From the NCBI GenBank assembly GCA_937989585.1, contig CALKRW010000006.1, positions 2,864 through 66,863 on the forward strand: 64,000 bases of DNA. The letters run 5' to 3'. A program made the translations under genes and the position numbers. Source of the stretch: an uncultured Porphyromonadaceae bacterium. GTDB taxonomy: Bacteria; Bacteroidota; Bacteroidia; Bacteroidales; Muribaculaceae. Positions 7,181-13,300 of this stretch are shown piece after piece; within the stretch, counting starts at the first letter, position 1, and every line of letters begins with the position of its first letter. The notes beneath the pieces were generated by a model. It did no database searches and was not told where the DNA came from. It saw nothing but the letters and a program-made list of their open reading frames with translations.

Positions 7181-8335
7181 ATGAAAAAATCGTTGCTTTC
7201 GCTCGCTTTCGGCACATTCGCGCTGGGCATCGTCGAGTTCGGTATGATGGGAATCCTTAACGACATCGCCTCGGCCCTCGAAATAAGTGTCGTCAAGGCG
7301 GGTCATCTTATTTCCGCTTATTCGGCGGGTGTCGCCGTTGGCGCACCCATGTTGCTTTTCCTGCGCCGCATTCCACTCAGGCGGCTTATGATTCTGCTCG
7401 CGGCGGTGATTGCCATCGGCAACGCCATGGTCGCCGTGTCTCCCAACTTCGAGTGCATGCTTGTGGCCCGTTTCATCTCGGGCCTTCCTCACGGGGCCTT
7501 CTTCGGCGCGGGCGCCATTGTGTGCTCGCGGCTCGCCGACCCCGGCAAGGGAGCCTCGGCTGTCGCTGTCCTCGTCGGGGGCATGACAGTCGCCAACCTT
7601 GTCGGCGTCCCGGTCTTCACCTTCATCTGCAACACCATCTCGTGGCGCATTCCCTTCGGACTTGTCGCGATGATAGGTGTCGCCACGGTGATTGCCATAC
7701 GCTTATGGGTTCCCGCGCTGCCGTCACTGCCCGACACCGGACTCAAGGGCCAGTTCCGTTTCCTCTCGCATCCCCAGCCCTGGCTGATTTATGCCGGAGT
7801 GTTCTTCGGACAGGCTAGTGTCTACTGCTGGCTCAGTTACATCTCGCCCATCATGACCGAGGTGGCAGGCTTCCCCGAGAACTCGATGACATGGATTATG
7901 GTGCTTGTCGGCTTCGGCATGGTTGCCGGCAACTATATCGCCGGACGCTTTTCCGACCGTCACTCGCCCTCGCTTGTGACAGCAATCATAGCCGCTCTCA
8001 TCATCGTGCTGATGCCCCTGGCCTATTTCTTTGCGGCCTCGCGTCCTGCCGAACTGCTGTTCGCCTTCCTTGCTCCGGCGCTGCTGTTCGGTCTCGGTGG
8101 TCCGCTGCAGTATCTCATCGTGCGTTATGCGCGAGGCGGCGAGATGCTTGGCGGCGCCGGCATACAGATATCCTTCAACGTGTCGAATGCCCTGGCAGCC
8201 GCGATGGGCGGCGCCGTCATAAACATGGGCTACGGCCTCGCCTCACCCGCCCTTGCCGGCGTACCCTGCGCAATCATCGGTGCCCTCGCCCTCTTCCGCC
8301 TCCACGCCATCGAGCGACGCACCCCCTCCGCCTGA
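7181..8335 (+). CDS. MFS transporter (AraJ-like efflux permease)
   Basis: About 12 predicted TM helices with MFS-type loop composition. Start moved to the ATG at 7181 (MKKSLLSLAFG). Confidence 0.75.
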   Translation: MKKSLLSLAFGTFALGIVEFGMMGILNDIASALEISVVKAGHLISAYSAGVAVGAPMLLFLRRIPLRRLMILLAAVIAIGNAMVAVSPNFECMLVARFISGLPHGAFFGAGAIVCSRLADPGKGASAVAVLVGGMTVANLVGVPVFTFICNTISWRIPFGLVAMIGVATVIAIRLWVPALPSLPDTGLKGQFRFLSHPQPWLIYAGVFFGQASVYCWLSYISPIMTEVAGFPENSMTWIMVLVGFGMVAGNYIAGRFSDRHSPSLVTAIIAALIIVLMPLAYFFAASRPAELLFAFLAPALLFGLGGPLQYLIVRYARGGEMLGGAGIQISFNVSNALAAAMGGAVINMGYGLASPALAGVPCAIIGALALFRLHAIERRTPSA

Positions 8336-8632
8336 CCGTCCACTCCTTCCCAAATTTCCAGCCTCTCTCTTCCAACCGGTTTTCTCCAACCACTCTCAAG
8401 ACCATATGTTGAACTTTGAGGAGGGTATGGGCGAATTGACCGAGCCCTATCGAGATTCAGGCAAAGGGATTTCCAAAACGGGAAGTCCTTTTGAGGGAGT
8501 GCTTTACCCGATGATTTCAAACTGTGGCTAAGCCGCCATCCCGGACTTACCATAGAAGAGGCCCTTCACCGCTATCGCGAAGGACAAAAAGCCAAACGCC
8601 GCCGACAAGGTCCCAAACTACATTAAACCCAA

Positions 8633-8675
8633 CGCCACCGAGAATCCTCATTTCTCGGTGGCGCTCTTTTATTTT
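8633..8675 (+). terminator. intrinsic terminator at the left edge of the AT-rich islet
   Basis: 12-bp perfect stem (cgccaccgagaa pairs with ttctcggtggcg), followed by ctcttttatttt. Confidence 0.65.
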
Positions 8676-8716
8676 GATAGCCTGTCGCAATTTTTATCCA
8701 CGGATTGGAACCTTTA

Positions 8717-9493
8717 TCATTCTTTGTCTGGAGCAGGAGCGGCAAAAGCCTCTTCTACAATGCCGACGATGGATGCCACAGGATGAATTGAGAATCGTAT
8801 TGTATTCTCATCAGTATGAAAAGTCGTTGAAATCAGAACCTGACGGTTGTTTTCCTTAGGAAAATCACAATTAATATATTCTCCTTTATATCTCTCCAGC
8901 CTATATTCAAAGAAGTCCTTTTTCAATAATTCATCTGAATCATATGAATTATTGGCTTTAGCTTCCTCTCGGAGATCTTCGAATTGCTGGGACGTCAGAA
9001 TCGTATTTATGATTTTCTCTAAATCATCATCTATCATACAGATTTTCCAACCTCTGCGTAATTTATATTGCGGCTGATTTCCAATGGCATCACGATGCAA
9101 TACAAAAAGAGCAGGAAGTTGCTTGATCTTGGATAGTGTGAATCCTTTGGGCACAAAAATCAAATCCTTATCGTGGATACCACAGAATTGCATTGAGTTG
9201 CCATCGACCACGAATTTATAAAAATCCTCCGGATTAAGAATTTTGCCTGTCTTAGAACGAAATTCATTATAATCCACTGATGGAGCAGCCAATACCATAG
9301 GAGCGGAAGGATGATGGGATGAACCTGCGCATACAGTATTATAGGTCTCCGTCAACATCGCATCACGCTTTTTGCGCCTGTTGTTCGACGCACATACCAC
9401 GGTGATTATAAACATGGCGAGAAAGATTATTATAAGGACACATCCTATAATAATCATTACTTCTGAAAACTGTGTGGACGAAGATTCCATCAT
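8717..9493 (-). CDS. membrane-anchored S24 (LexA/UmuD-like) peptidase-domain protein without a DNA-binding domain
   Basis: Single N-terminal TM helix followed by RRKKRD. An Ala-Gly dipeptide (VCAGSS) lies 44 residues before FVVDGNSMQ, the GxSM nucleophile motif. YKLRRG supplies a candidate Lys 44 residues after the Ser. Start assigned to the ATG overlapping the upstream stop (ATGA). Confidence 0.7.
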   Translation of the reverse strand: MMESSSTQFSEVMIIIGCVLIIIFLAMFIITVVCASNNRRKKRDAMLTETYNTVCAGSSHHPSAPMVLAAPSVDYNEFRSKTGKILNPEDFYKFVVDGNSMQFCGIHDKDLIFVPKGFTLSKIKQLPALFVLHRDAIGNQPQYKLRRGWKICMIDDDLEKIINTILTSQQFEDLREEAKANNSYDSDELLKKDFFEYRLERYKGEYINCDFPKENNRQVLISTTFHTDENTIRFSIHPVASIVGIVEEAFAAPAPDKE

Positions 9494-9933
9494 ATATGAG
9501 AGCTGTATGTCAGACCTTTGCTTTTGAAGAAACAAAGATTCAGATTATTAGACATAAACGCCATAACTGCTTTTGAAGCAATCATGGAGCAGATCATCGC
9601 ACCTAAGGCGAGGATTTGATTATACTGTATAAACAACCATCCGAAGAAAGTGGCTGATATTAAGGTAAGGAAAACTGCCGATATAAAAATGAGGACATTA
9701 GAACCGAATTGCTTGTCGGCTTGATGAACACTCAAATCCATATAGTAGATAATCGTCTCCAAAAGGAATATGAAGTAAACAGTCCATCCTCCTATTACAA
9801 GCTGTGTTTGCCATGCACTTATTTTGGGCATAAAGCCAAAGATACCCATTGACAAGCCAATTGCCCATACCAATGTATTGAGAATGGGAATCAGGATATG
9901 ATGAATTTTAGAGTCGTCAAGTGCCATAGCCAT
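9490..9933 (-). CDS. 4-TM membrane protein, function unknown (upstream partner of the S24 protein)
   Basis: 147 aa with four clear hydrophobic helices. Its TGA stop overlaps the downstream ATG. A TATCTTTG promoter box lies 25 nt upstream. Confidence 0.6.
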   Translation of the reverse strand: MAMALDDSKIHHILIPILNTLVWAIGLSMGIFGFMPKISAWQTQLVIGGWTVYFIFLLETIIYYMDLSVHQADKQFGSNVLIFISAVFLTLISATFFGWLFIQYNQILALGAMICSMIASKAVMAFMSNNLNLCFFKSKGLTYSSHI

Positions 9934-9958
9934 TTATAAGAATGGAGTTTTTAGTTTG

Positions 9959-9966
9959 CAAAGATA
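9959..9966 (-). promoter_or_regulatory. Bacteroidota -7 promoter box (TATCTTTG on the minus strand)
   Basis: Plus-strand caaagata is the reverse complement of TATCTTTG. It lies directly upstream of the 4-TM/S24 pair. Confidence 0.6.
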
Positions 9967-10221
9967 CTGGTTCTCGGCGAGATGACAAAAGAAATGTTGA
10001 AAAAAGTGCTGATGTAGAGGGTGAAAGAGGTGTAACTCCGATGCAATCGTGCTCATTATTCAAGTGTGCAACAACGATATTCACTTACGTCACACGGCCA
10101 AATCGCATGCTTTTGCAATCATTTGGCACCGTCATGGATGATAGAAGTCGGATTAGTTTGGTTCGGGCTTTAGATATGCCCGACTAAACCTAAACCAATA
10201 TAGAGGGCTGGGCAAAAGAAA

Positions 10222-10249
10222 AGCTGTTACGATTTGTTTCGTAACTGCT
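10222..10249 (-). terminator. second intrinsic terminator downstream of nifJ
   Basis: gttacga/tcgtaac stem extended by agc/gct. In minus sense it is followed by tttcttttg. Confidence 0.6.
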
Positions 10250-10285
10250 TGATTTATTAGGGTGGTCCCGCTTGGACTTGAAACA

Positions 10286-10314
10286 GCGAGCCCCGCCGGT
10301 GAGGCGGGGCTCGC
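10286..10314 (-). terminator. GC-rich hairpin immediately downstream of nifJ
   Basis: 12-bp perfect stem (gcgagccccgcc pairs with ggcggggctcgc) with a 5-nt loop. The T-run is weak. Confidence 0.55.
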
Positions 10315-10340
10315 GCTATCTTATATTATAAGGTGTGGGA

Positions 10341-13300
10341 TCAGGCGTTCTCGTTGGCCTGCTCGAGGGGTTTGATCAGAGGATCGGCGCCCCACTGCTG
10401 CTGGCTCAGACGGAGGTAGTTGTTGTAGCGCCACTGTGCGTTGGCCTTTGCGGCGGCGAACATTTCCTCGGCTTCCTGGGGGAAGGACTTGAGCATGGAG
10501 GCGTAGCGTACCTCGCCTTTGAGGAAGTCCTCGAACTTGTCCCAGTCGGGAGTCTTCGAGTCTAGCGAGAAGGGGTTCTTGCCTTCTTCCTCGAGAGCGG
10601 GGTTGTAGCGCCAGAGGTGCCAGTAGCCGCATGCGACTGCCTTGGCTTCCTCGGCCTGGCTCTTGCCCATGCCTGACTTGAGGCCGTGGTTGATACAGGG
10701 TGCGTAGGCGATTATCAGCGAGGGACCGTCGTAAGCCTCAGCCTCGCGGAGGGCCTTGAGGGTCTGTGCGTTGTCGGCGCCCATGGCGATCTGTGCGCAG
10801 TAGACGTAGCCGTAGGTAGAGGCGATGAGGCCGAGGTCTTTCTTACGGATGCGCTTGCCTGCGGCGGCGAACTTGGCGATGGCGCCGATGGGGGTAGCCT
10901 TCGAGGCCTGGCCGCCGGTGTTCGAGTAAACCTCGGTGTCGACGACAAGGACGTTGACGTTCTTGCCCGAAGCGAGCACGTGGTCGAGACCGCCGAAGCC
11001 TATGTCGTAGGCGGCGCCGTCACCGGCGATGATCCACTGCGAGCGGGCGGCGATGAAGCCCTTGAGTTCGAGCAGGGCCTTGCAGTTGTCGCAGCCGCAT
11101 GCCTGGCAGAGGGGAACGAGTTTGTCGGCGACCTCGCGTGTTACGGCGGGGTTCATCTTGTTGTCGAGCCACTGCTGGGCGAGGGCCTTGATTTCGTCGG
11201 AGCACTGTGCGCAGCCGAGCATGCTGGTCATGACGGCGGCGACGCGGTCGCGAATCTTGTCGGTGGCGATCTTCATGCCGAGGCCGAATTCGGCGAAGTC
11301 CTCGAACAGTGAGTTGGCCCATGCGGGACCGTTGCCCTTGGCGTTGGTGGTGTAGGGAGTCGAGGGAACCGAACCCGAGTAGATCGACGAGCAGCCTGTT
11401 GCGTTCGCAACCATTTCGTGGTCGCCGAAGAGTTGCGAGATGAGTTTGACGTATGGAGTCTCGCCGCAGCCGGAGCAAGCGCCGGAGAACTCGAAGAGGG
11501 GAGTCGCGAACTGGCTGTTCTTGGGCATGGCCTTGATGTCGACGAGGTCCTGCTTCGAGGTGACATTCTTGACGCAGTAGTCCCATTCCTTCTGGACGGG
11601 GAGCTGGCTTTCGAGGGGCTTCATGGCGAGAGCCTTCACGCCCTTCTTGCCGGGGCAGACGTCAACGCAGTTGCCGCAGCCGAGGCAGTCGAGTACGTCG
11701 ACGGCCTGGAGGAAGCGCATGCCGGTGAATGTCTTGCCGATGGCGGGGATTGTGGCGTCTTCCGCGAAGGGAGCGGCCTGCATTTCCTTTGCGTCGAGGA
11801 CGAAGGGACGGATGGCGGCGTGGGGGCAGACGAAGGCGCACTTGTTGCACTGGATACAGTTGGCTTCATCCCATTCGGGAACGAAGGCAGCCACGCCGCG
11901 TTTCTCGTATGCCGCTGTACCCTGTTCCCAGGTGCCGTCGGGGTTGGCTGTGAAGGCGCTGACCTTCAGCAGGTCGCCGTTCTGGGCGTTGATGGGACGG
12001 ACAACGTCGTTGATGAATGCGGGATCGTTGTTGTCGGCGCACTCGTCGTCGGGGAGGCTGGCCCATGCGGGGTCGATCTCGAGTTTGTGGTACTCGTTGC
12101 CGCGGTCGACTGCTGCATAGTTCTTGTCGACTACGTCCTGACCCTTCTTGCCGTAGGACTTGACGATGAATTTCTTCATCTGCTCTACGGCCAGGTCGAC
12201 GGGGATGACCTCGGTGATGCGGAAGAATGCCGACTGGAGGATGGTGTTGGTGCGGTTGCCAAGGCCGATCTCGACAGCGATGCGGGTTGCGTCGATGTAG
12301 TAGACGGTGATGTTGTGCTGGGCGAAGTAGCGCTTGACGTTGTTGGGGAGGTTCTTGGCGAGCTCGTCGCCGCTCCATATGGTGTTGAGCAGGAATGTGC
12401 CGCCGTCACGCAGACCGCGTGTCACGTCGTACATGTGGAGGTAGGCCTGTACGTGGCATGCCACGAAGTTGGGGGTGTTCACCAGATAGGTCGAGCGGAT
12501 GGGCTTGTCGCCGAAGCGCAGGTGCGAGCAGGTGAAGCCGCCTGATTTCTTCGAGTCGTATGCGAAGTATGCCTGGCAGTATTTGTTGGTGTTGTCGCCG
12601 ATGATCTTTACCGAGTTCTTGTTGGCGCCAACAGTGCCGTCGGCGCCGAGGCCGTAGAACTTGGCCTCGAAGGTCGAGGGATCGCCGAGGGCTACCTCAG
12701 CCTTCTCGGGCAGCGAGGTGAATGTGACGTCGTCGACGATGCCGACGGTGAAGCGGTCCTTGGGCTGGGGCAGGGCGAGGTTCTCGAATACTGCGAGCAC
12801 CATTGCGGGAGTGGTGTCCTTCGAGGCCAGGCCGTAGCGTCCGCTGACAATCTCGGGAGCGTCGGCGACGCCGTAGAAGCATTCCTTGACGTCGAGGGCG
12901 AGGGGCTCGCCGTTGGCGCCGGGCTCCTTGGTGCGGTCGAGCACTGCGATGCGCTTTGCGGTCTTGGGGACTGCGGCGAGGAAGTGCTTGGCCGAGAAGG
13001 GACGGTAGAGGTGAACTGCAACCATACCTACTTTCTCGCCCTTGGCTACGAGCGAGTCGATGGCTTCCTGGGCGGCCTGGGTTACGGAACCCATGGCGAT
13101 GATGACGCGCTCGGCGTCGGGTGCGCCGTAGTAGTTGAAGAGGTGGTATTCGCGGCCTGTGATCTTCGAGATCTCGGCCATGTAGTTCTCGACGATTTCG
13201 GGAACGGCCTCATAGTGCTTGTTGCATGCCTCGCGGTGCTGGAAGAAAACGTCGCCGTTCTCGGCCATGCCGCGTGCAACGGGAGCGTCGGGGGTGAGGG

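Follow-up and report, generated by a model that had tools for sequence, protein, structure and literature searches.

A mobile two-gene cassette of Bacteroidales encoding a predicted membrane-anchored S24 peptidase and a four-helix membrane protein

Introduction

What would a LexA-like peptidase do at a membrane, next to a small protein with four transmembrane (TM) helices? The question is raised by two overlapping genes, here called A and B, found in a stretch of 64,000 nt from an uncultured Porphyromonadaceae bacterium (contig CALKRW010000006.1 of assembly GCA_937989585.1). This whole stretch is referred to as the window, and its positions are used throughout. S24 autoproteases are the classic DNA-damage switches, comprising LexA, phage repressors and UmuD, and to our knowledge those that are well characterised are soluble. 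A sequence-only reading of the window had proposed that self-cleavage of B, tethered to the membrane, could unleash A. The pair is laid out as follows, both genes being defined as open reading frames (ORFs).

9933..9490, minus strand: gene A; 147 aa, four TM helices, predicted N-in/C-in
9493..8717, minus strand: gene B; 258 aa, predicted bitopic membrane protein, S24 (LexA/UmuD-like) domain on the cytoplasmic side
8672..10033, minus strand: conserved mobile two-gene cassette, consisting of the promoter region, gene A, gene B and a 45-nt 3' tail

The fold, motif conservation, predicted topology, linkage and mobility of the pair are documented below. With moderate confidence, the cassette is read as a self-contained, mobile, promoter-bearing operon for a two-component inner-membrane module, in which B would undergo autocleavage and which would have an accessory role in conflict.

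Results

Fold and family of protein B

A model of B was generated with AlphaFold2 (AF2) from an alignment of homologues, with a predicted local distance difference test (pLDDT) score of 88.4 and a predicted template modelling (pTM) score of 0.79. It consists of a helix (residues 3–46), a strand ending at C55, a turn formed by the Ala-Gly pair, a β-core, a helical insertion (158–217) and closing strands. When the model was compared to the PDB with Foldseek, the 19 best matches were all C-domains of LexA or UmuD', the first being 1jhe_A (E = 3.8e-3, probability 1.00, TM-score of 0.60 relative to the target). The TM helix and the insertion plausibly explain why the E-values are modest. In a viral structure library, the top matches belonged only to the S24/S26 clan, with helix-turn-helix (HTH)-S24 repressors and signal peptidases.

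The family profile of B was aligned by hhalign (E = 2.6e-5) with a reference alignment of LexA, UmuD, λ CI and Bacillus subtilis LexA. VCAGSS is set on VAAGEP, which places A56-G57 on A84-G85 of LexA, and S100 of the GNSM motif is set on S119 of LexA. The close homologues of B form 33 clusters at 90% identity, from which 28 members were aligned. The Pfam family PF00717 (Peptidase_S24) matches 22 of these 28 at E ≤ 0.01 (best 6.7e-6), no other Pfam family recurs, and a precomputed PF00717 match is carried by two of the 33 clusters. Protein B of the window gives weak UmuD matches with PRK10276 of NCBIfam (E = 0.049) and with the UmuD-like PHROG 811 (E = 0.076). The LexA/UmuD-like S24 fold that had been read from the sequence is thus borne out by Foldseek, by hhalign and by the PF00717 matches of the homologues, and the identification of B as an S24 peptidase by its fold and catalytic motifs is well supported.

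Residues 1–46 of B consist of a TM helix and a basic stretch, and no HTH family of Pfam matches the protein. The proposal that a membrane anchor replaces the N-terminal DNA-binding domain agrees with these results. As it lacks a DNA-binding domain, B is not a repressor of the LexA/CI type. The S24 β-core of B also contains an insertion:

8843..9031, minus strand: acidic helical insertion of about 63 residues (155–217) in the S24 β-core, from the AF2 model

Its helices span residues 158–166, 169–180, 187–207 and 214–217, between flanking strands 143–153 and 218–226. It contains 17 Asp and Glu for 10 Lys and Arg, is conserved across the B family and explains why B exceeds the LexA/UmuD core by about 60 residues.

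Predicted cleavage site and catalytic residues

Three sites of B were assigned as follows.

9323..9328, minus strand: codons of the predicted scissile bond A56-G57, from the hhalign alignment to LexA A84-G85 and conservation
9194..9196, minus strand: codon of the predicted nucleophile S100 (GNSM motif), from the hhalign alignment to LexA S119 and conservation
9062..9064, minus strand: codon of the predicted general base K144 (YKLRR), from conservation and its location in a β-strand of the model

The motifs stand where they had been reported, RRKKRD starting at residue 39, VCAGSS at 54, FVVDGNSMQ at 94 and YKLRRG at 143. The spacings from the Ala-Gly pair to S100 and from S100 to K144 are both 44 residues, as had been counted.

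Conservation was evaluated over 127 full-length B representatives, each standing for one cluster at 50% identity. A56 is present in 120 of them, G57 in 123, S100 in 119 (with Cys in two others), K144 in 122 and R146 in 124, so that the Ala-Gly, Ser and Lys positions are indeed conserved in homologues (119–123 of 127). In the alignment of the close B homologues, no change is seen at K144, R146 and R147, and hardly any at A56, G57 and S100. In nearly all members of the family, the N-terminal segment is hydrophobic and the Ala-Gly pair lies about 41–43 residues ahead of the GxSM motif. Ala, Ser and Lys have been lost together in three representatives (P0148, P0149 and P0151), two of which keep the Gly. 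Such a joint loss is as expected if these residues act as one unit.

The same three proteins look like catalytically dead relatives in which the overall architecture is retained. Additional polar residues, S222, T224, S235 and H237, found in the ISTTF and FSIHP motifs of the closing β-strands, are kept in 120–122 of the 127 representatives. We know of no counterpart of these residues in LexA.

Topology of protein B

The membrane anchor of B was located by hydropathy and the distribution of positive charges.

9389..9457, minus strand: TM anchor of B (residues 13–35), followed by RRKKRD

When Lys and Arg residues were counted over 22 B proteins, one was found before the TM helix, whereas the 15 residues that follow the helix contain 85 in total. 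This distribution predicts an N-out/C-in orientation, with the S24 domain in the cytoplasm. This count supports, as a prediction, the view that B has one TM helix followed by RRKKRD and that the remainder is in the cytoplasm. The A56-G57 bond is located only about 10–20 residues past the membrane anchor.

Protein A and its linkage to B

Protein A has no meaningful match in Pfam and NCBIfam (best E 3.2 and 0.015), and no match at all in PADLOC and PHROGs. Its AF2 model is a low-confidence four-helix bundle (pLDDT of 64.6), with which Foldseek retrieved only generic helical bundles at E > 2 (best 2.2). Over 18 homologues of A, 92 Lys and Arg residues are found in the N-terminus, loop 2 and the C-terminal tail, compared with 19 in loops 1 and 3. 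A is therefore predicted to be N-in/C-in, so that loop 2 and the tail would share the cytoplasmic side with the domain of B. These two cytoplasmic regions, loop 2 and the C-terminal tail, are conserved.

Three charged residues of A, E59, D66 and K121 (encoded at about 9757–9759, 9736–9738 and 9571–9573), are located in or near the TM helices. They are present together in 16 of the 18 homologues; the L004/L009 clade has N, V and F. Their occurrence in the sequences suggests that they may form an intramembrane charge network.

A homologue of A is encoded directly upstream of B and on the same strand at every locus with a full-length B, save on the short contig L020, where the ORF filter reported none. 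The junction varies between loci, with overlaps of 4, 8, 23 or 37 nt, or gaps of 2 to 23 nt. The upstream proteins match A of the window with phmmer E-values from 1e-22 to 2e-5. In an all-against-all comparison of the genes of 22 distinct loci, A and B were the only families found in 22 of 22, and the genetic linkage on which the sequence-only reading depended is therefore strict elsewhere too. No third gene is conserved across the 22 loci, RHS-type genes reaching only 5. The matrices of pairwise identities of A and B are correlated with r = 0.94, a value that was attained in none of 2000 permutations, which indicates that the pair has been inherited and has diverged as one unit.

One variant of the window locus, L037 from sample SRR34547890, has one extra base in the A4/T4 run at 9043–9046. 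B is frameshifted after about codon 149 and no gene is called for it, while A is intact. Either B is a natural pseudogene in this variant, or the assembly is in error.

Distribution and mobility

A hidden Markov model (HMM) search of 1.84 billion cluster representatives returned 248 relatives of B at E ≤ 0.001, including 150 at E ≤ 1e-10, nearly all of them 205–278 aa long. With that many relatives, the ORF of B was counted as a real gene. A set of 185,579 species-representative genomes yielded 19 loci. Eighteen belong to Bacteroidales (Muribaculaceae, Prevotella, Odoribacter, Barnesiella and Porphyromonadaceae); the remaining one (L027), in a metagenome-assembled genome (MAG) labelled Oscillospiraceae, encodes only a 74-aa C-terminal fragment. 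The cassette is essentially restricted to Bacteroidales.

The two-gene cassette is horizontally mobile. Region 10033..8672 of the window has 95% DNA identity over 1364 nt to loci L032–L035, in which the context is unrelated and the pair adjoins acetyltransferase and tautomerase genes. A second group (L028–L031, Phocaeicola barnesiae-like) is 83.7% identical with the same 5' edge at 10033 and an end at 8715.

Two divergent A-B copies are present in each of two MAGs (L012 and L022 in CAZJKZ01; L009 and L023 in CAZCZX01). In assemblies from other samples, contigs of the same species break off at 8676 and about 10289, at the edges of the AT-rich island that contains the cassette. Such contig ends are as expected if the cassette is repeated or polymorphic in those metagenomes. 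Exact look-ups of the flanking proteins, a major facilitator superfamily (MFS) transporter and NifJ, returned the same locus or contigs ending at the edges, and no uninterrupted MFS-nifJ junction that would represent an empty site. A search of the island flanks revealed neither terminal repeats, inverted or direct, nor a target duplication, and no recombinase was found beside the island in the window.

Genomic context

Two loci are at the integrase end of a prophage. In L042, genes for the small and large terminase subunits are followed further on by A, B, an excisionase-like HTH gene and an integrase gene; in L036, a contig of IMG/VR, an integrase fragment comes after the pair. In L001, the pair lies inside a conjugative-transposon region. 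Several loci are near toxin-antitoxin genes of the HigBA type or YoeB. Other neighbours are a DNA methylase gene with DUF6339 and a McrB N-terminal domain, an AAA_14-DUF4143 gene and a Schlafen/AlbA_2-like ATPase gene. RHS/TcdB-type polymorphic toxin genes occur within a few kb in 5 of the 22 loci (L011, L014, L015, L017 and L022). In L022, a gene for an '8xMP' octameric membrane protein directly follows the pair. Taken together, these neighbourhoods are only loosely in keeping with an accessory or conflict function.

Promoter and boundaries of the cassette

The cassette lies in an island delimited by the terminators of the MFS transporter gene (8633–8663) and of nifJ (10286–10314). Two elements precede gene A.

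8664..10285, no strand: AT-rich island between the terminator hairpins of two host genes
9966..9959, minus strand: Bacteroidota-type −7 promoter element TATCTTTG (TAnnTTTG), from the sequence, 26 nt ahead of the start codon of gene A
9989..9986, minus strand: candidate −33 element TTTG, inferred from the sequence, 19 nt upstream of the −7 box

The GC content is 39.3% in the island for about 60% in the flanks, and 38.7% in the cassette (1.36 kb) for 55.4% in the whole window. At the third codon position (GC3) the values are 0.43 for gene A and 0.37 for gene B, compared with 0.83 for nifJ and 0.75 for the MFS gene. The contrast first pointed out, 19 G or C out of 60 bases at 9001–9060 against 39 out of 60 at 10381–10440, was recounted and is exact.

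The 19-nt spacing between TTTG and the −7 box fits the Bacteroides promoter consensus. The motif TAnnTTTG occurs 35 times in the window for 18 expected, so a single copy means little by itself. However, when about 24 related loci were compared, nearly all had a TAnnTTTG box 20–35 nt ahead of their gene A homologue. Since it is kept at this place in almost every related locus, it is considered to be the operon's own promoter, and the box that had been assigned to the cassette at 9959–9966 is confirmed.

The leader at 9945–10031 (about 90 nt including the promoter) is 73% identical to positions 7197–7290 of L004/L005. The cassette proteins of these loci are only about 40% identical, so that the non-coding leader is better conserved than the genes. 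This conservation could reflect a shared regulatory element or promoter swapping.

The stop/start overlap of the two genes, an ATGA at 9493..9490, was derived again from the window sequence and is as described. Public gene calls start B at another in-frame ATG (TGATG, at 9490), which gives 257 aa; residue numbers of B may therefore shift by one. The stretch of about 250 nt (10034–10285) that separates the cassette from the nifJ terminator is AT-rich, has no similarity to any fetched locus and includes a hairpin with a 7-bp stem at 10226–10245. A scan of 8300–10400 against Rfam gave only chance-level matches, far under the gathering scores.

Discussion

The following scheme is proposed for the A-B pair. 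The two proteins would form a membrane complex through their TM helices. Upon a signal, S100 and K144 would cut the A56-G57 bond of B, thereby severing the S24 domain from the TM stub and altering the state of the complex containing A. Of B, some 56 residues would stay in the membrane as a TM stub beside the 4-TM partner, and some 200 would come off as a soluble fragment. The outcome may be that an activity of A and the stub is unmasked, or that the soluble fragment is released. The module may defend the cell against phages or other mobile elements or exclude them, or it may be addiction-like. A conflict or accessory role is the best guess that can be made, given the mobility, the placement at prophage ends, the multiple copies per genome and the variable neighbours.

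Several observations weigh against this proposal or parts of it. Regarding the enzyme, the match of B of the window with Peptidase_S24 of Pfam (E = 0.0015, 18.7 bits) is under the gathering threshold of 23.3. Sequence searches of the PDB retrieved no S24 chain, either with the single protein, for which nothing relevant was found, or with the family profile. The relationship of B with S24 peptidases is visible only by fold search and profile-profile comparison. The hhalign alignment ends at residue 122, short of the Lys, so that the equivalence of K144 with LexA K156 is presumed rather than aligned. Regarding the function, neither A nor B has a match in PADLOC-DB v2 at E ≤ 1, there is one match in 2.9 million IMG/VR viral contigs, and the pair was not found by tblastn in phage and plasmid collections. 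Two loci are at prophage integrase ends and several have toxin-antitoxin, restriction-modification or RHS neighbours, but many sit among housekeeping genes without defence neighbours. Cleavage of B, its trigger (RecA* or other), the contact between A and B, and the phenotype or role of the pair are what we infer. Lastly, the frameshifted B beside an intact A in L037 argues weakly against A being lethal alone, or against a simple model of a toxic A checked by B.

Of the sequence-only reading, RecA* as the trigger, the unleashing of the 4-TM partner and a role in abortive infection or exclusion stay conjectural. The idea of a membrane immune or exclusion switch in gut Bacteroidales, of a class not described before, in which infection or damage, by way of RecA* or another cue, would lead to the A56-G57 cut and turn the 4-TM protein into a permeabilising or exclusion effector, is tentative and rather doubtful. 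RecA* is a possible trigger of B cleavage that is not favoured. In the AF2 model, the catalytic β-core begins a few residues from the membrane helix, and docking into the groove of a RecA filament is sterically doubtful at such a short distance. In addition, the known non-canonical LexA regulators of other Bacteroidetes do not occur in Bacteroidales (PMC8565304), so that RecA*-coupled S24 signalling is undocumented in this order. If true, the switch would give an SOS-like sensor to an order lacking known LexA regulators.

Other functions can be considered for the pair. It is unlikely that the cassette is an addiction module, in which A would be a membrane-damaging toxin and B an antitoxin made unstable by constitutive slow self-cleavage, with no phage or DNA-damage signal, loss of the cassette being what kills. 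A small mobile cassette that has its own promoter, stands alone at many unrelated chromosomal sites and shows tight translational coupling of A and B would suit such a function, as would the HigBA or YoeB genes adjoining some loci. However, A has no homology to known membrane toxins or holins in Pfam, PHROGs or the fold search, the gene order and protein sizes are atypical of type II toxin-antitoxin systems, and the metagenomic copy with a frameshifted B retains an intact A; yet that copy would still encode B as far as its TM helix, Ala-Gly site and Ser/Lys part. It is also improbable that B cuts in trans, the substrate being the tail or a loop of A or another protein, or that it is a non-cleaving scaffold with the Ala-Gly pair as a pseudosubstrate. 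In favour, loop 2 and the C-terminal tail of A are both conserved and on the side of the S24 domain, C-terminal fragments of LexA and CI are able to cleave in trans, and nothing in LexA obviously corresponds to the conserved S222, T224, S235 and H237. However, A was found to contain no conserved Ala-Gly or Cys-Gly, and the Ala-Gly pair of B, aligned to the scissile bond of LexA, is kept in 120–123 of the 127 representatives at a fixed distance from the Ser.

The two remaining alternatives concern B as a known type of enzyme or subunit. That it might be a signal-peptidase-like (S26) enzyme, processing exported proteins with a periplasmic catalytic domain, is very improbable. An N-terminal TM anchor with a Ser-Lys fold of the same clan is common to both, signal peptidases are among the matches in the viral structure library, and YKLRRG resembles the box D motif YIKR. 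The positive-inside count (1 versus 85) nevertheless predicts a cytoplasmic domain, no signal peptidase is among the 50 best PDB matches listed, the top 19 being LexA or UmuD', box E (GDN...S.DSR) is not visible in the sequence of B, and the LexA-type Ala-Gly site is conserved. That B could be a UmuD-like accessory subunit of a translesion polymerase is hardly credible. UmuD likewise has no DNA-binding domain, and the weak PRK10276 and PHROG 811 matches point in its direction, but a membrane anchor and an obligate 4-TM partner fit this role poorly, and UmuC or any Y-family polymerase is absent from the 25 commonest Pfam families of the 117 scanned neighbour genes and from the annotated gene lists. 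The reading retained is that of a mobile inner-membrane module in which B would cleave itself. Since this mobile cassette is found in dominant gut Bacteroidales, which are reported to be without non-canonical LexA regulators, it is a candidate for a new mechanism of defence, exclusion or addiction in the gut microbiome.

Comparison with known systems

B shares with LexA, CI and UmuD (MEROPS family S24) the fold, the Ser of the GxSM motif, the downstream Lys and an Ala-Gly bond about 40 residues before the Ser. The N-terminus is a winged helix-turn-helix in LexA and CI and a short arm in UmuD, whereas it is a TM anchor in B, which adds the 63-residue acidic helical insertion and an obligate 4-TM partner gene. 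The two spacings of 44 residues in B compare with 35–38 and 37–43 in LexA, CI and UmuD. Signal peptidase I (MEROPS S26, clan SF) is, like B, an N-terminally anchored Ser-Lys peptidase of the same structural clan. In contrast to it, B has a domain predicted to be cytoplasmic, a LexA-type cleavage site, and LexA and UmuD' as its nearest structures; on the grounds of predicted topology and nearest structures, B is not a signal peptidase.

The RexAB system of phage λ is a prophage-borne two-gene module, in which RexB (about 145 aa) has four TM helices and is accompanied by a cytoplasmic sensor of about 260–280 aa. It adjoins the S24 repressor gene in the λ immunity region. The A-B pair may work like RexAB, as an analogy only: the gene order is reversed, the sensor B is itself tethered to the membrane and has an S24 fold, and neither A nor B has a RexA- or RexB-type match in Pfam or PHROGs.

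The San Juan system (PMC12366544; 10.1101/2025.02.28.640651), which originates from metagenomes, also has two genes, a 4-TM component and an abortive-infection-like phenotype. In the literature searched, no other two-gene defence system with a 4-TM component was found. Its gene sjdA carries DUF4760 (Figure S5 legend) and the 4-TM protein is encoded by the second gene, sjdB; the 4-TM proteins of the two systems were compared by description only. Identity of the A-B pair with San Juan was rejected, as B has no match to DUF4760 even at E ≤ 10. A precedent for a trigger other than RecA* is provided by IrvR of Streptococcus mutans, a RecA-independent LexA-like regulator (PMC7101444). IrvR is a soluble DNA-binding repressor with neither a membrane anchor nor a 4-TM partner, unlike B.

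Pfam, NCBIfam, PHROGs and PADLOC contain no match to the pair that is significant or above a curated threshold, full-text literature searches found no description of a membrane-anchored S24 autoprotease, and the sole name given to members of either family in any source is 'hypothetical protein'. The impression that no system with this architecture has been described is thus upheld for the family libraries and the literature searched. If the proposal is correct, about 250 clusters (at 50% identity) with a membrane-bound self-cleaving core and a 4-TM partner would extend the S24 switch to membrane signalling or effectors. The enzyme core is a known one; its membrane-tethered architecture is new and its partner obligatory.

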